64,000 nucleotides of DNA. Source: an uncultured Actinomycetota bacterium. Its GTDB lineage: Bacteria > Actinomycetota > Actinomycetes > JACCUZ01. The notes below the pieces were generated by a model. The model had not been told where the DNA came from. It saw only the letters and a program-made list of their open reading frames with translations, and did no database searches. This document shows positions 3,545 to 59,915 of this stretch, one piece after another. A program made the translations under genes and the position numbers. Every line of letters starts with the position of its first letter. Position 1 is the first letter of the stretch. Location: assembly GCA_963784645.1 (NCBI GenBank), contig CAWARY010000020.1:86899-150898 (forward strand), written 5' to 3'.

Positions 3545-4777
3545 ATGTCGGGCATGACAGCTGCCGGCGGTCCCCACGTCCTCGACGTTCTCCGCGTCCG
3601 CGCCGCGTTCCCCGCGCTCGACCACGGCGTCGCACACTTCGACGGGCCGGGCGGCTCCCAGGTCCCCAGCACCGTCGCCGAAGCTGTCGCGCGGACCCTG
3701 ACGGCCGGGGTCGCCAACCGCGGCACCGTCACCGACGCGGAGCGCCGCGCCGAGTCCGCCGTGGTCGACGCCCGCCAGGCGATGGCCGACCTGGTGGGGG
3801 CGGACCCGCGCGGCGTGGTGTTCGGGCGCTCGATGACCCAGCTGACCTACGACGTGTCGCGGGCGCTCGCCAAGGACTGGGGACCGGGCGACGAGGTCGT
3901 CGTCACCCGACTCGACCACGACGCCAACATCCGCCCGTGGGTCGCGGCCGCCGAGAGCATCGGCGCCACCGTGCGGTGGGCCGGCTTCGACCGAGCGACC
4001 GGTGAGCTCGACGTCGCCGAGATCGCGTCGCTGCTGGGCGACCGCACCCGGCTGGTGGCGGTCACGGCTGCCTCGAACCTGCTCGGCACCCGACCCGACG
4101 TCCCGGCGATCGCTGCCGCCGCCCGGTCCGCCGGTGCCCTCGTGTACGTCGACGGCGTCCACCTCGCACCGCACGCACCGGTGGACGTGGCGGCGCTCGG
4201 CGCCGACTTCTTCGCCTGCTCGCCGTACAAGTTCTTCGGTCCGCACCTGGGTGCCGTCGTGGCCGACCCCGCACAGCTCGAGCGCCTGCACCCGGACAAG
4301 CTGCTGCCGTCGAGCGACGCGGTGCCCGAGCGGTTCGAGCTCGGCACGCTCCCCTACGAGCTGCTCTCGGGGGTGACGGCGACGGTCGATTTCATCGCGG
4401 ACCTGGTCCCCGGCCCGGGCGAGCGCCGCGCCCGCGTACTGGCCTCGATGGCGGCGGTCGAGGCACACGAGGACCGGTTGCTGCGGCGCCTGCTCACGGG
4501 GCTGGGCGACATCGACGGCATCACGTTGCACGGGGACCCGGCCCGGCGCACACCGACCGCCCTGTTCACCGTCGAGGGCCGCCGCGGTCGCGAGGTGCAC
4601 GAGCTGCTCGGTGCCGCGCGCATCAACGCACCCGCCGGGAGCTTCTACGCTCTCGAGGCGTCACGCTGGCTGGGGCTCGGTGACACCGGAGCGGTGCGCG
4701 CCGGGCTGGCACCGTACTCCGACGACGAGGACGTGTCCCGGCTGCTGGCAGCCGTCGCCGCCCTCGCCGTTCCGTGA
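3545..4777 (+). CDS. Aminotransferase class V / cysteine desulfurase-like PLP enzyme
   Basis: Fold-type I PLP enzyme features are present: SNLLG, DGVHLAPHAPVDVAALGADFFACSPYKFFGPHLG (the Lys in SPYKF is the putative PLP lysine), and a C-terminal YSDDEDV. The start was chosen at MSGMTAAGGP. Confidence 0.7.
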   Translation: MSGMTAAGGPHVLDVLRVRAAFPALDHGVAHFDGPGGSQVPSTVAEAVARTLTAGVANRGTVTDAERRAESAVVDARQAMADLVGADPRGVVFGRSMTQLTYDVSRALAKDWGPGDEVVVTRLDHDANIRPWVAAAESIGATVRWAGFDRATGELDVAEIASLLGDRTRLVAVTAASNLLGTRPDVPAIAAAARSAGALVYVDGVHLAPHAPVDVAALGADFFACSPYKFFGPHLGAVVADPAQLERLHPDKLLPSSDAVPERFELGTLPYELLSGVTATVDFIADLVPGPGERRARVLASMAAVEAHEDRLLRRLLTGLGDIDGITLHGDPARRTPTALFTVEGRRGREVHELLGAARINAPAGSFYALEASRWLGLGDTGAVRAGLAPYSDDEDVSRLLAAVAALAVP

Positions 4778-17146: not shown

Positions 17147-17262
17147 AGGTCGGTGACCCGCCGTCGCGGGTGCGGTCAAGCCTGCGGGTCCGTGACCCGC
17201 CGTCGAGGCTCGAGGTCTGAGCGCGTGGGTCGGTGGCCCGCCGTCGCGGGTGCAGGTCAGAG
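17147..17262. repeat. Three direct copies (about 33 bp each, one degenerate) of GGTCGGTG(A/G)CCCGCCGTCGCGGGTGC(A/G)GGTCA. Further inverted copies of the GACCCGCCGTCG core lie at 17485, 17543 and 17566.
   Basis: The repeats were read directly from the sequence. Copies 17148-17180 and 17229-17262 are about 94% identical. Each contains an ACCCGC-N4-GCGGGT internal inverted repeat. Confidence 0.6.
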
Positions 17263-17335
17263 CGGCCAGGACGCGGACGCTGCACCTGCCGGGCGGGGCG
17301 CCGTCGGTCTCATTCCGTGGGATGACCGGGGCGCT

Positions 17336-37405: not shown

Positions 37406-38272
37406 ATGGGCGACGCAGCGGACGGCGCACCGAAGGTGACCGACCTCCGGCTCGTGGCAGTCACCGACGGCCGCGGTCACCTCGTCCTCGAGGACGACCA
37501 GAGCCGCCAGTTCCGCGTGCCGGTCGACGAGCGCCTCGCCAACGCCCTGCGCTCCCCCGAGCGCCCCCGTTCCGATGGTCCCCGACGAGACGGCCAGCTG
37601 GAGATCGCCTTGGAGAGTCAGCTCAGCCCCCGCGAGATCCAGGCCCGCGTCCGCGCCGGCCACAGCGTCGACGAGGTCGCCATCGCTGCGGGCATCAGCG
37701 CCGAGCGGGTCGAGCGCTACGCCGTGCCCGTCCTGGCCGAGCGGCAGCACGTCGTCGAGCTGGCCCAGCGCGCCCCCGGCCGGCGTGCCAGCGCGGGCAA
37801 GGCGCCAGCCCTGGCCGAGGTCGTCGAGGCGCGGTTGGCCGAGCAGAACGTCGCCGTCGACTCCCTCGCCTGGGACGCCTGGCGCGGCGACGACGGCCGC
37901 TGGGTCGTCAGCGTCACCTACCCGGGCACCGCCCGCGACCGGGTCGCCACCTGGTCCTTCGACCCTCGCGGTCGGGTCCTGGCCGCGGCCGACGACGAGG
38001 CCCGCTGGCTGGCCGGCGACGACGCCACCGAGCGCGTCGCGGACGACCGGCCGACCGCGATCCGGCGGCTGTCCGCCGTGCCCGGCGGCGCCGACGGACG
38101 CCCCGAGGGTCCGGCCGAGGCGCCCGCCCTGCGGGCCGACGAGCCCTACGACCGCGAGGCCGACGAAGCCAGGCACCACGAGCCGCAGCAGGCGGCGGCC
38201 GCGGCGCGCGGTCGCCGGCCGGCCGTCCCGGCCTGGGACGACATCATGTTCGGCCCCCGCCGCCGCGACTGA
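37406..38272 (+). CDS. sepH: Septation protein SepH-like (DUF3071)
   Basis: GGGAGG lies 5 nt upstream of the ATG. The N-terminus, LRLVAVTDGRGHLVLEDDQSRQFRVPVDERL, plus ...SPREIQARVRAGHSVDEVAIAAGISAERVERYAVPV matches the DUF3071 HTH. The C-terminus is Arg/Ala-rich. Confidence 0.6.
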   Translation: MGDAADGAPKVTDLRLVAVTDGRGHLVLEDDQSRQFRVPVDERLANALRSPERPRSDGPRRDGQLEIALESQLSPREIQARVRAGHSVDEVAIAAGISAERVERYAVPVLAERQHVVELAQRAPGRRASAGKAPALAEVVEARLAEQNVAVDSLAWDAWRGDDGRWVVSVTYPGTARDRVATWSFDPRGRVLAAADDEARWLAGDDATERVADDRPTAIRRLSAVPGGADGRPEGPAEAPALRADEPYDREADEARHHEPQQAAAAARGRRPAVPAWDDIMFGPRRRD

Positions 38273-38280
38273 GCCAAGGT

Positions 38281-38342
38281 CCTTGAGTGGCGCGTTGTGG
38301 CTGTATATCGGCCTCAGATCTGCCACTACGCGCCACTCAAGG
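38281..38342. terminator. A 14-bp perfect inverted repeat (CCTTGAGTGGCGCG-N34-CGCGCCACTCAAGG) between the convergent sepH and rhodanese genes
   Basis: Read from the sequence. It starts 9 nt after the sepH stop. The relatively AT-rich spacer contains a nested GTGGC/GCCAC pair. Confidence 0.4.
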
Positions 38343-38469
38343 CATCGGACGTGCCGGGAGGCGTCGCGGGCGGCGGGACGGCGCGACTGCCTCCGCCTGT
38401 CCTTGCTGGTCTGACCTCAGCCATCGGCGGGTGACGCAGTGACAACCCCGCCGGGACGGTGTGGACCCG

Positions 38470-39327
38470 TCAGCCTGGATCGGACCCGGTGGCCACCGGG
38501 CGCGCCGGGTCGGTGACCCAGTCCGACCAGGACCCGGCGTACAGGGCGGCGTGGACGCCGACGGCCTCGAGGGCCAGCACGGTGTGCGCCGCCGTCACGC
38601 CGGAGCCGCAGTAGGCGCCGACGGGTCGGCTGCCGTCCGCACCGACGGCGGTGAACCGGGCCCGCAGCACGTCGAGGTCGAGCAGGGTCCCGTCCGGACC
38701 GGCGTGCTCGCGGGTCGGCAGGCTCACCGCGCCCGGGACGTGGCCGGCGACCGGGTCCAGCGGCTCGGTGTCGCCGCGGTAGCGCTCCCCCGCCCGCGCG
38801 TCGAGCAGGACGCCGTCGCGAGCCAGGGTCGCGGCCGCTTCGGCGTCCAGGATCGGCATGGATCCCGGCCGGGCCACCAGGTCACCCGGCACCGGTGTCA
38901 CGTCGCCCGTCTCGATCGGCATCCCGGCCGCGGTCCAGGCCCGAAGCCCACCGTCGAGCAGCCGCACGTCGGTGTGCCCGAGCCACCGGAGCAGCCACCA
39001 GGCGCGGGCCGCGATCGAGCCCTCGACGTCGTCGTAGACCACCACGGGCCGGCCGCCGCTGACCCCGAGACGTCGCACCGTCGCCTCGGCGGCCCCCGGT
39101 GCGGGGAGGGGGTGCCGCCCACCGGCCCCCGGCGGCGCCGCGAGGTCGTCGTCGAGATCGACCCAGACGGCGCCGGGCAGGTGGCCGGCCGCGTACTCGT
39201 CGTGCAGCCGCAGCCCGGCGGCCCGCCAGCGGACGTCCAGCAGCAGCGGTGGCCGGTCACCGGCCAGCCCGGCGGCGACCGTCGCGACGTCGACGAGCGG
39301 GCTCACCTCAGCCGGTGACGCGGACAT
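38470..39327 (-). CDS. Thiosulfate/3-mercaptopyruvate sulfurtransferase (tandem rhodanese domains)
   Basis: Two rhodanese domains with the catalytic Cys in CGSGVTAAH. The start was chosen at ATG 39327 (MSASPAEV). The track ORF extends to 39399 through the tandem repeat. Confidence 0.75.
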   Translation of the reverse strand: MSASPAEVSPLVDVATVAAGLAGDRPPLLLDVRWRAAGLRLHDEYAAGHLPGAVWVDLDDDLAAPPGAGGRHPLPAPGAAEATVRRLGVSGGRPVVVYDDVEGSIAARAWWLLRWLGHTDVRLLDGGLRAWTAAGMPIETGDVTPVPGDLVARPGSMPILDAEAAATLARDGVLLDARAGERYRGDTEPLDPVAGHVPGAVSLPTREHAGPDGTLLDLDVLRARFTAVGADGSRPVGAYCGSGVTAAHTVLALEAVGVHAALYAGSWSDWVTDPARPVATGSDPG

Positions 39328-40060
39328 CGCCGCGGCGCGGCGGGACGGAATCGCCGCGGCGCGGCGGGACGGAATCGCCGCGGCGCGGCGGGAGGGCACA
39401 GGCCGCGAGGTCGAACGGCAGCGCGTCGGCCTCGAGTGCAGCGACCCGCACCAGCGCCTCCTGCGACGCCGCCGTCATGCGCCGCATGTGGTGCCGTCGG
39501 CAGAGCACCTCGTAGCCCACGGTGTCGCCTGCGGCGGTGTCCCCCACGACGACCTGCTCGCCCTCGACGACCATGACGCCGTTGACGGTGCGGGCGTTGT
39601 GCGTGGCGCGTGAGCCGCACCAGCAGAGCGCCTCGACCTGCGGCACCTGCACCCGGTCGGCCAGCTCGACGAGGCGCTGCGACCCGGGGAACAGGCGGGT
39701 GCGGAAGTCGGCCATGATCCCGAACGCGTACACGTCGACCGCCAGCTCGTCGACGACACGGGCCAGCTGCTCGGCCTGCACCACGCTGTAGAACTGGGCC
39801 TCGTCGCAGATGAGGTAGTCGACCCGTCCGCCGTTGATGCGCTCTCCGGCGACGACATCCCAGAAGTCGAGCTCGTCGGTGACCTCGATGGCCTCGGTCG
39901 AGAGTCCGAGGCGGCTGGACAGCGTCGCAGCGCCGGCCCGGTCCAGCTTGGTGAAGATCAGGCCGCGGCGGCCGCGCTGCCGGTGGTTGTGCTCCATCTG
40001 CAGAGCGAGCGTGGACTTGCCGCAGTCCATCGTGCCGGCGAAGAAGACGAGCTCGGGCAT
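39308..40060 (-). CDS. tdk: Thymidine kinase with a C-terminal extension of about 45 aa containing three PPRRGD(S)V repeats
   Basis: MPELVFFAGTMDCGKST (P-loop), ...YLICDEAQF..., a Zn-ribbon-like C..C...C..H and ...EVLCRRHH are present. The frame stays open to 39308, which is 20 nt inside the rhodanese gene. Confidence 0.8.
   Translation of the reverse strand: MPELVFFAGTMDCGKSTLALQMEHNHRQRGRRGLIFTKLDRAGAATLSSRLGLSTEAIEVTDELDFWDVVAGERINGGRVDYLICDEAQFYSVVQAEQLARVVDELAVDVYAFGIMADFRTRLFPGSQRLVELADRVQVPQVEALCWCGSRATHNARTVNGVMVVEGEQVVVGDTAAGDTVGYEVLCRRHHMRRMTAASQEALVRVAALEADALPFDLAACALPPRRGDSVPPRRGDSVPPRRGDVRVTG
39328..39395. repeat. A 24-bp tandem direct repeat, CGCCGCGGCGCGGCGGGACGGAAT, present as 2 perfect copies plus 1 partial
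   Basis: Read from the sequence. In the tdk frame it encodes PPRRGDSV three times. In the other minus-strand frame it encodes PSRRAAAI three times. Confidence 0.85.
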
Positions 40061-40233
40061 CGCAGGTCGAGACTCCTGGGTGGGGGCTGAGGGGGCTGCC
40101 GCCATCGTGCCACCCCCGCGGGCCCGCGGCGCCGGACGCGTGACCTGGGGCCCGTCGACTCGTTGGCCAGACCGGGACGTCGGTCGCACCGCAGAGGGGA
40201 CGGTGCGACCGACGCTCGGGCACCAGCAACAGG

Positions 40234-41367
40234 TCAGCAGTGCTGGACGAGCAGCGGGACCTCGATCTCGTCCGGGGTGAGCCCGCCGTGCATCCCCACC
40301 AGCCGCAGCACGAACGGCGGGGCCGTCCGCGAGTCGACGACGACGTGGTCGCGCCGCGCCAGCGCGAGCAGGTCGCCCAGCCGGTCCCGCACCTCGTCGC
40401 GCACCACCGGCCCGTAGTAGCCGGCGTCGACGGCAGTGTCCCGGTCGAGCAGCCAGAACGCGTCGCCCAGCGTGGCCTCCCAGGCAGCTCGTACGTCGGC
40501 CAGGGCCCCGTCGCGTACGTGCAGCTGGAGACCCCGCAGGTCGCCGGACAGCGCAGCGACGCCCTGGTCCAGCGCGGGCGTCGTCGCGACGTCCCAGCGG
40601 TTCTCGAACGGCACGTCCAGCATCCCGTGGTCCGAGGTCACCAGCAGGGTCGTCCCCGGTGGCAGTCCCGCCGCGACCTGGGCGGCCCAGACGTCGACCC
40701 GCGCCAGTTCGGCGCGCCATGCGTCACTGCGGTAGCCGGCTCGGTGACCGGTCGCGTCGAGGTCGCCGTAGTACACGTAGACCAGGGCCGGCGCGGACCG
40801 CCGCACGGCGACGTGGGTGGCGGCCACCCGGTCCCCGACGGTCTCGGCGGCCACGTAGTCCCCGCCCCGCAGGCCGGCCTCGGTGAGCCCCTGACCGTCG
40901 AAGACCGCCGGCCCGACGCGGGTGACCGCTACCCCCGCCTCCGCGGCGCGCTCGAACGCCGTCGCGACGGGCTGGAACACGCGCAGGTCGGTCTCGGCCG
41001 GGATGGCGAGCATGTTGACCCGCTGGCCGGAGCCGAGCCGCACGTGCAGACCGGTGACGCCGTGCTCGCCAGGGGTCAGGCCGGTGCCCAGCGAGGTCAG
41101 GGCGATGGGGGTGGTGCTCGGGAAGACCGTGGTGATCTCGGCCGAGGCCGGCGAGTCGAGCAGCCCGGCGAGGAACGGCGCCTGCGCGGCGTGCTCCCGC
41201 AGTGCGATCGTTCCGAGCCCGTCGATCAGCAGGACGACGACGCGACCGGTGGTCGGCAGCGCGGGTCCGGGCCGCTCGCCGGGCAGACCGAGCGAGGTGA
41301 GCACCGCCGGCAGGACGTCGGCCAGCGAGCCACCGCCGTAGCGGGGCGCGGAGGGTAGGTCGGTCAA
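40234..41367 (-). CDS. Alkaline-phosphatase-superfamily protein (nucleotide pyrophosphatase/phosphodiesterase-like)
   Basis: AP-superfamily metal-site motifs are present (VVLLIDGLG, TVFPSTTP, YYGDLDATGH, VTSDHGM). The likely TTG start at 41367 (MTDLPSAPRYGGG) overlaps the upstream stop (TTGA). Confidence 0.7.
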   Translation of the reverse strand: MTDLPSAPRYGGGSLADVLPAVLTSLGLPGERPGPALPTTGRVVVLLIDGLGTIALREHAAQAPFLAGLLDSPASAEITTVFPSTTPIALTSLGTGLTPGEHGVTGLHVRLGSGQRVNMLAIPAETDLRVFQPVATAFERAAEAGVAVTRVGPAVFDGQGLTEAGLRGGDYVAAETVGDRVAATHVAVRRSAPALVYVYYGDLDATGHRAGYRSDAWRAELARVDVWAAQVAAGLPPGTTLLVTSDHGMLDVPFENRWDVATTPALDQGVAALSGDLRGLQLHVRDGALADVRAAWEATLGDAFWLLDRDTAVDAGYYGPVVRDEVRDRLGDLLALARRDHVVVDSRTAPPFVLRLVGMHGGLTPDEIEVPLLVQHC

Positions 41368-59689: not shown

Positions 59690-59915
59690 CCCAGTGTTGG
59701 TCGGTCCTCGGCGTGCCCGGGGGGCGATCCGGGGTAGTCGCCGTGCATGGACGGGGAGCGGCGCCGACGCCGGGAGGACCTGCTGCGACGCCTCGAGCAG
59801 CGGCGCCCGCGCCGCAGCTACCTGCTGCGGCGGCTGGACGAGCTGGCCCGCCGCCGGGCCAACCGCCGTCGTGGGCAGAGCGGCGAGGATCCGTCCTGAC
59901 CGGTGCGGTCGGTTC

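Follow-up and report, generated by a model that had tools for sequence, protein, structure and literature searches.

The minus strand of a 64,000-nucleotide (nt) stretch of DNA from an uncultured Actinomycetota bacterium, a soil actinomycete (contig CAWARY010000020.1, positions 86,899 to 150,898; hereafter the window, meaning the whole stretch analysed) carries a thymidine kinase gene (tdk) followed by a gene for a rhodanese-domain sulfurtransferase, and the 3' end of tdk contains a tandem repeat with a 24-nt unit. Three head-to-tail units span 39326-39397 on the minus strand (72 nt) and, in the tdk frame, read (A/S)(L/V)PPRRGD three times, followed by VRVTG and the stop codon (Table 1). The tail of the encoded protein (Tdk) is ...ACALPPRRGDSVPPRRGDSVPPRRGDVRVTG*, with no in-frame stop from the ATG at 40060 through the array. 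A preliminary description of this DNA, made from the letters alone, had the tdk frame traverse the repeat and terminate at 39308, and translation bears this out: the TGA occupies 39310-39308, no stop was missed near 39395, and the encoded peptide has, as described, three units bearing the Arg-Gly-Asp (RGD) tripeptide.

The repeat itself, also reported in the preliminary description, is real. On the plus strand, the 24-mer CGCCGCGGCGCGGCGGGACGGAAT shows perfect periodicity across 39326-39393 (68 nt, 2.83 units). Tandem Repeats Finder (TRF) delineates the array as 39321-39393 (period 24, 3.0 copies, 97% matches) with a score of 137, the top of the 72 rows for the window, and a repeat search matches units 39326-39349 and 39350-39373 at 100%, and 39374-39397 at 92%. 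The longest exact self-match at an offset of 24 is 44 nt, whereas none of 40 first-order Markov surrogates exceeds 16 nt, so that these are head-to-tail copies, well above chance, of a unit that exceeds the minimum of about 10 bp expected of a tandem repeat of this kind. The array is the sole location of the 24-nt unit within the 64-kb window (expected number, 0), which rules out a dispersed element resembling repetitive extragenic palindromes or mycobacterial interspersed repetitive units (MIRU). The unit equals 8 codons, a multiple of three, and the open reading frame (ORF) stays open in alleles with one, two and three units. In the minimum free energy structure, the palindromic cores of adjacent units pair as a hairpin.

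Table 1. Coordinates of the features of the tdk-rhodanese locus, in positions of the window
Feature	Positions	Strand	Details
tdk coding sequence, TK1-like thymidine kinase, 250 amino acids (aa)	39308..40060	-	ATG 40060, TGA 39310-39308; Pfam PF00265
Conserved actinobacterial C-terminal extension MRRMT...ALPFDLAAC, tdk codons 192-221	39398..39487	-	follows the CRRHH zinc-site motif
Repeat unit 1	39374..39397	-	GCC CTC CCG CCG CGC CGC GGC GAT = ALPPRRGD; 92% to units 2 and 3
Repeat unit 2	39350..39373	-	TCC GTC CCG CCG CGC CGC GGC GAT = SVPPRRGD; missing in L083
Repeat unit 3	39326..39349	-	identical to unit 2 (SVPPRRGD); final GAT + next G = ATG 39327-39325, +1 frame
10-nt palindrome CGCCGCGGCG, three copies, one per unit	39328..39385	.	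39328-39337, 39352-39361, 39376-39385; inverted-repeat pairs
Unique final five tdk codons	39311..39325	-	GTC CGC GTC ACC GGC = VRVTG; common to 1-, 2- and 3-unit alleles
Rhodanese-domain sulfurtransferase coding sequence	38470..39306	-	preferred start GTG 39306, MSPLVDV...; Pfam PF00581, E 1.3e-28

Tdk is a TK1-like thymidine kinase by its score against the Pfam TK family (residues 4-191, E 6.7e-20, 72.1 bits against a cut-off of 20.6), its P-loop (GTMDCGKST, residues 9-17) and its zinc-site motifs (CxC ... CxxH), in which C146, C148, C187 and H190 are invariant in an alignment of 40 sequences. The protein aligns to the solved thymidine kinases 2b8t, 2uz3, 8y7w and 3e2i, and its N-terminus, M(P/A)ELVFF, is common to all relatives. 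Its C-terminus is less anomalous than the preliminary description had it, namely, a frame that runs past the usual stop after CRRHH for about 65 codons. The actual number is 59, and there is no such stop in the clade: close relatives normally have 41 of these codons, conservation across Actinobacteria extends to about 30 of them, and the solved thymidine kinases also continue for 13-27 residues past the CRRHH-type motif. In the 40-sequence alignment, R193, M195, L214 and P215 of the extension are invariant, residues M192, R194, T196, D212, F216, D217 and C221 reach 90% conservation or more, and no column beyond C221 is conserved; likewise, 80 actinobacterial tdk loci align to the query as far as residue ~216-227. 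Given this conservation, the segment MRRMT...ALPFDLAAC is, as judged from the alignments, a feature of actinobacterial Tdk proteins, and the tail up to C221 is not the product of read-through. In the aligned parts of the solved structures, this extension, MRRMT...(helix)...LPFD..AC, has no counterpart.

Only residues 222-250 are lineage-specific. The Tdk proteins of the relatives are 222-260 aa long, and their tails past C221 vary widely in sequence. Some of these tails contain micro-duplications unrelated to the array described here (PPPPPTPPPPTP in P0070, VAPVAWVAPVAPVA in P0085 and PFGPFG in P0090); the end of Tdk past C221 is a recurrent site, a general hotspot of tolerated small duplications in this group. 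A full-text search of the literature for repeat tails of bacterial thymidine kinases found nothing.

The number of units differs among close relatives. In the public collection, the exact Tdk protein of the window is P0244, encoded on a 497-kb contig, which belongs to a 35-member cluster of proteins at 90% identity; the commonest form among the listed members of this cluster is 232 aa long, ends in ...ACALPPRP(A/V)RVT(G/R)* and has neither the repeat nor the RGD. A single unit is found in an independent short-read assembly (L083, SRR13106740; 97.7% nt identity), where the protein ends in ...ACALPPRRGDVRVTG*. This is a genuine allele, not a de Bruijn (k-mer) collapse, because about ten 31-mers across its junction could not be supplied by a three-unit allele like that of the window. 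Two units, in the form of a precise duplication of GCTGTCCCGCCGCGCCGCGGCGAC, are present in a sister lineage with ~95% DNA identity, with no sequence difference between three independent assemblies: JBBRVW010000017, a metagenome-assembled genome (MAG) from NCBI (L001/L085), SRR31070306 (L086) and SRR19962013 (L087). The more distant L084 has no repeat and ends in PPRRTTTPARVTR*, and three units are found only in the contig of the window. With 0, 1, 2 and 3 units coexisting among genomes that are 95-98% identical at the DNA level, the expansion is recent and the locus copy-number-variable, as anticipated in the preliminary description. A scan of metagenomic DNA anchored on the last unit and the unique tail (CGCCGCGGCGAYGTCCGNGTCACCGG) yielded two matches, both by chance and in unrelated genes, and no further alleles.

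A truncated form of the sister-lineage protein also occurs. In P0251 (MEO7979964.1, on a 5776-nt contig, named ‘Sporichthyaceae bacterium' by NCBI), a partial Tdk of the L001 type stops at ...AACA, where the repeat starts, which suggests that this short-read assembly broke at the array.

The relationship between the array and the downstream gene hinges on the start codon of the latter, a two-domain rhodanese named thiosulfate/3-mercaptopyruvate sulfurtransferase by JGI. The preliminary description placed the start at ATG 39327, 20 nt inside tdk, and weighed it against a position further upstream, 39399. The ATG does exist and would add MSASPAE to the N-terminus, but comparison favours GTG 39306 over both, and a start at 39399 is very unlikely. 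Several lines of evidence converge on this choice. In tblastn comparisons with 27 loci, the alignments start at residue 1-3 of the protein read from GTG 39306. Rhodanese starts in the relatives fall −3 to +29 nt from the tdk stop; in the 8 relatives with adjacent genes, the distance from this stop is −3 to +18 nt for the inferred start, where a candidate start codon precedes the conserved N-terminus, and −3 to +63 nt for the onset of homology, and in two relatives (L004 and L006), the GTG after the stop is the sole available start. The sister lineage L001 has an ATG exactly at the position of GTG 39306, and its gene caller used it (P0241, 278 aa). Furthermore, ATG 39327 arises from the tdk Asp codon GAT, in place of which L001 has GAC and, consequently, ACG in the rhodanese frame. 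Finally, comparison of the window with L001 over the 45 nt ahead of the tdk stop gives 3 synonymous changes and 1 non-synonymous change when the sequence is read as tdk, but 0 synonymous and 5 non-synonymous when it is read as the extended rhodanese. Taken together, these comparisons indicate that the rhodanese most likely starts with GTG 39306, 1 nt past the tdk stop (TGA-G-GTG). Contrary to the proposal that the repeat overlaps the true start, it then most likely lies upstream of the start, not across it; the two genes overlap by at most 20 nt and probably not at all.

In co-transcribed bacterial genes, tight stop-start junctions (ATGA, TGAnATG) are associated with translational coupling. 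The junction in the window, where a single base separates TGA 39310-39308 from GTG 39306, is of this type, and the relatives have either 4-nt GTGA/ATGA overlaps (L014, L039) or 4-17 nt gaps. There is nothing unusual about such a junction; only the depositor's ATG 39327 gives a 20-nt overlap.

The start calls deposited for these 95%-identical genomes are not equivalent (285 versus 278 aa; window 39327 versus position 3001 in L085, which is equivalent to window 39306), because a synonymous GAC-to-GAT change in tdk created the upstream ATG. The presence of the rhodanese at the tdk locus also differs between relatives: in L002 and L003 (3699-3790 in each), with Tdk proteins 96% and 91% identical to that of the window, there is no rhodanese, and the convergent DUF3071 gene comes immediately after tdk. 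In Kitasatospora and Streptomyces, the rhodanese is located 0.9-2.5 kb further downstream.

Altogether, the array is very probably a young in-frame coding minisatellite, or variable-number tandem repeat (VNTR), in the unconstrained extreme C-terminus of Tdk; among the three options raised in the preliminary description, a neutral minisatellite fits best, the repeat being unconserved and the tail past C221 unconstrained. The alleles show the course of events: the ancestral tail in this genus-level group was ...ACALPPRP(A/V)RVT(G/R)*, one lineage gained PPRRGD-VRVTG, and the xxPPRRGD segment of 24 nt was then duplicated in tandem, which brought one lineage to two units and the window to three, with the single unit persisting in a 97.7%-identical strain. 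The starting point would have been an incidental G+C-rich, palindrome-bearing 24-nt segment in the unconstrained last codons of tdk. To judge from the anatomy of the array and from what is generally known of repeat instability, duplication may have occurred by replication slippage or by unequal recombination (exchange), and the G+C-rich 10-nt palindrome in each unit probably assists either process as neighbouring units pair as a hairpin; the array would grow and shrink in steps of 8 codons. Such changes are likely to be tolerated and effectively neutral. Tolerance is suggested by the fact that the unit comprises 8 codons past C221 and leaves the frame and the catalytic, zinc-site and extension regions untouched; selection would be blind to the number of units because the stop, the 18 nt ahead of the rhodanese start and the VRVTG at the end of the protein are unchanged as well. 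The three RGDs would be copies of one incidental RGD, and a single ancestral RGD is unremarkable because the tripeptide occurs about once per 1000 aa in the open frames of the window DNA.

Several observations weigh against this interpretation or against parts of it. Its neutral component rests on a lack of conservation, and the three-unit allele is known from a single assembly (P0244, one contig). The junction codons differ by lineage, SV in the window and AV in L001, so the duplications may have been independent or may go back to one old event followed by divergence, and L083 may represent the ancestral state or a contraction. No single simple and precise duplication of the one-unit allele would yield the TCCGTC junction of the window. 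In an AlphaFold2 model of Tdk built from the 40-sequence alignment (mean predicted local distance difference test, pLDDT, of 62), pLDDT falls below 50 throughout residues 141-250, including the zinc/lasso region; low values cover the whole C-terminal half of the protein, and no disorder specific to the tail is apparent. As for the rhodanese start, ATG 39327 is present in both sequences of the window lineage (window and L083) and was picked by the depositor's caller (P0121, 285 aa, on the 497-kb contig), and the leaders preceding PLVDV range from 2 to 9 residues among the homologues, which would accommodate a rhodanese longer by 7 codons with a 20-nt overlap, although this form is not preferred.

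As an in-frame coding VNTR, the array adds one more example, real but ordinary, to a well-known kind. Bacterial coding minisatellites and in-frame VNTRs are exemplified by loci of the MIRU-VNTR type, and the array resembles them in strain-variable copy number, an origin by slippage or unequal recombination, and location in an unconstrained segment of a protein. It differs in being very short (1-3 units) and in coming from an uncultured lineage represented by only a few metagenome assemblies. Simple-sequence contingency loci produce phase variation through repeat slippage. The array shares with them a slippage-prone repeat near a gene boundary, but a 24-nt unit, being a multiple of three, cannot switch the frame; no on/off alleles were seen, and both genes are intact in all alleles. 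Human TK1, a member of the same enzyme family, likewise extends past the zinc/lasso region in a C-terminal tail that is not catalytic; this regulatory tail carries a KEN-box degron. There is, however, no sequence similarity between the two tails: that of Tdk is unconserved and contains no recognisable degradation signal, and its terminal VRVTG is constant between alleles. In Mycobacterium tuberculosis, pe/ppe genes are reported to carry in-frame structural variants (PMC12817950), to which the head-to-tail, near-perfect units with a length divisible by three are comparable; unlike in PE/PPE-type or surface proteins, the array here is found in the last codons of a housekeeping enzyme of nucleotide salvage. 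Promoter tandem repeats with varying copy number and altered expression are also reported in M. tuberculosis (PMC12817950). These are similarly actinobacterial, variable in number and located just upstream of a gene start; the array, however, lies inside the upstream coding sequence and contains no recognisable promoter element.

This precedent of copy-number variation altering the expression of downstream genes in an actinobacterium (PMC12817950) lends some appeal to the proposal, made in the preliminary description, that the repeat is a slippage hotspot tuning tdk/rhodanese coupling: the number of units, 19-90 nt upstream of the sulfurtransferase start, would modulate coupling or rhodanese expression, possibly via ATG 39327. 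The array is indeed immediately upstream of, or abuts, the rhodanese start, a position that suits a promoter repeat; its copy number does differ between close strains; every unit contains a hairpin-capable palindrome; and in the window lineage the array ends in a newly formed start codon, ATG 39327. Nevertheless, such a role is decidedly unlikely. The mRNA fold around the junction is no stabler than those of shuffled sequences (z = −0.54), no promoter-like sites (sigma-70-like hexamers included) or terminator-like sites were detected in 38100-40400 by a scan that is weak for high-G+C actinomycetes, the unit lacks the TA dinucleotide that a −10 element would need, and a search of 37800-40400 against Rfam at E ≤ 1 returned only two sub-threshold chance matches to eukaryotic families. 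Moreover, the repeat stops short of the 18 nt that precede the preferred start (the tdk stop among them), a stretch that does not differ between alleles, relatives without the repeat show the same tight junction, and the absence of the rhodanese here in the equally close L002 and L003 implies that the pairing of the two genes is not strongly maintained. It is very unlikely, too, that copy number is a heritable, reversible dial on the tdk-sulfurtransferase junction, whereby the CGCCGCGGCG palindromes of the units may pair in the mRNA upstream of the rhodanese start or a longer Tdk tail may alter turnover of the enzyme. Under this scheme, strains with one, two and three units would differ in sulfurtransferase translation or in the level of Tdk, and the locus would be a coding-sequence analogue of the phase variation by promoter tandem repeats reported in M. 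tuberculosis (PMC12817950).

Alternatively, the PPRRGD units could be a proline/arginine-rich interaction module or an RGD adhesion module that provides Tdk with a new partner or localisation, with the number of units setting the strength of binding. No allele breaks the frame, and P, R, G and D abound in the unit, as in many linear motifs, but a 24-nt unit preserves the frame automatically, and roughly one in five proteins of the size of Tdk would contain a single RGD by chance. Apart from the window, only L083 and the L001 lineage have the RGD; neither it nor the unit is present in the other tails examined, those of ~45 proteins (from the top 120 matches and the 90% cluster) and the 12 closest genome loci, and the residues at the equivalent position vary freely. 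Tdk is a cytoplasmic P-loop kinase, and the TK domain, which begins at residue 4, leaves no room for a signal peptide. The RGD-adhesin reading is rejected on these grounds, lack of conservation and no room for an export signal, and the interaction tail suggested in the preliminary description is, more generally, extremely unlikely. Mis-assembly, that is, over-expansion of a locus with one or two units, is brought to mind by the single contig with three units and by the general difficulty of repeats for assemblers, manifest in the related MAG contig that ends exactly at the repeat. This explanation is highly improbable: at 72 nt, the array is shorter than ordinary reads and is exactly in frame, the TCCGTC junction of units 2 and 3 occurs in no other allele and so was not copied from a neighbour strain, and the one- and two-unit alleles in four other independent assemblies demonstrate real variation. 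There remains the dual-coding alternative, in which the rhodanese starts from GTG 39399 and the repeat encodes an N-terminal leader of the twin-arginine (Tat) kind. No stop interrupts the +1 frame from 39399 onwards, and this mechanically called ORF does read PSRRAAAI three times, as noticed in the preliminary description, with SRR in each copy. This reading is barely credible given that none of the 120 listed homologues has an alignable extension (coverage is 79-94% of the 309-aa query, starting at about residue 25-33, with nothing aligned upstream of 39306), so that there is no protein conservation in both frames, that the longer homologues have unrelated N-termini, that the rhodanese frame of L006 is closed just upstream of the post-stop GTG (the ORF opens at 3691), and that in L004 this GTG is the only candidate start. 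The substitutions relative to L001 in the extended frame, all of them non-synonymous, point the same way. A Tat leader, which calls for an S/T-R-R-x-F-L-K-like motif ahead of an uncharged hydrophobic stretch, was rejected by eye: SRR is followed not by a hydrophobic h-region but by AAAI and AAAMSASPAEVSPLVD, with acidic and other charged residues, and the extension is absent in the relatives.

If the interpretation of the array as a neutral minisatellite is correct, its significance is small: it is a clean, dated case, from a high-G+C actinomycete, of a protein C-terminus that lengthens through in-frame micro-duplication, and the states of 0, 1, 2 and 3 units are all still extant in nature. 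In practice, the locus offers a ready strain-typing marker for this uncultured lineage. It also carries a warning to annotators, as a synonymous change in tdk sufficed to shift the rhodanese start calls and a MAG contig is broken exactly at the repeat. The array would be of larger importance only if the number of units altered sulfurtransferase expression or the stability of Tdk.

Two other aspects of the region deserve mention. A segment of ~197 nt (window 38273-38469) separates the rhodanese stop from that of the convergent DUF3071 (SepH-like) gene; it is present in the window and L083, but the L001 lineage has 16-17 nt in its place and L084 has 39 nt. The minus strand of this segment has a predicted fold of −101.7 kcal/mol (z −4.21, matched by 0 of 200 shuffles; z −3.15 for the plus strand), with a long hairpin that has arms at 38281-38303 and 38320-38342. 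The segment has no Rfam match, no T-run terminator and no second copy in the window; it could be a lineage-specific insertion, a structured bidirectional terminator or a small RNA. The window also contains further repeats detected by TRF, all imperfect: 741-796 (period 18, 3.1 copies, 89%), 17148-17264 (period 41, 2.9 copies, 78%) and 59757-59858 (period 42, 2.4 copies, 72%).

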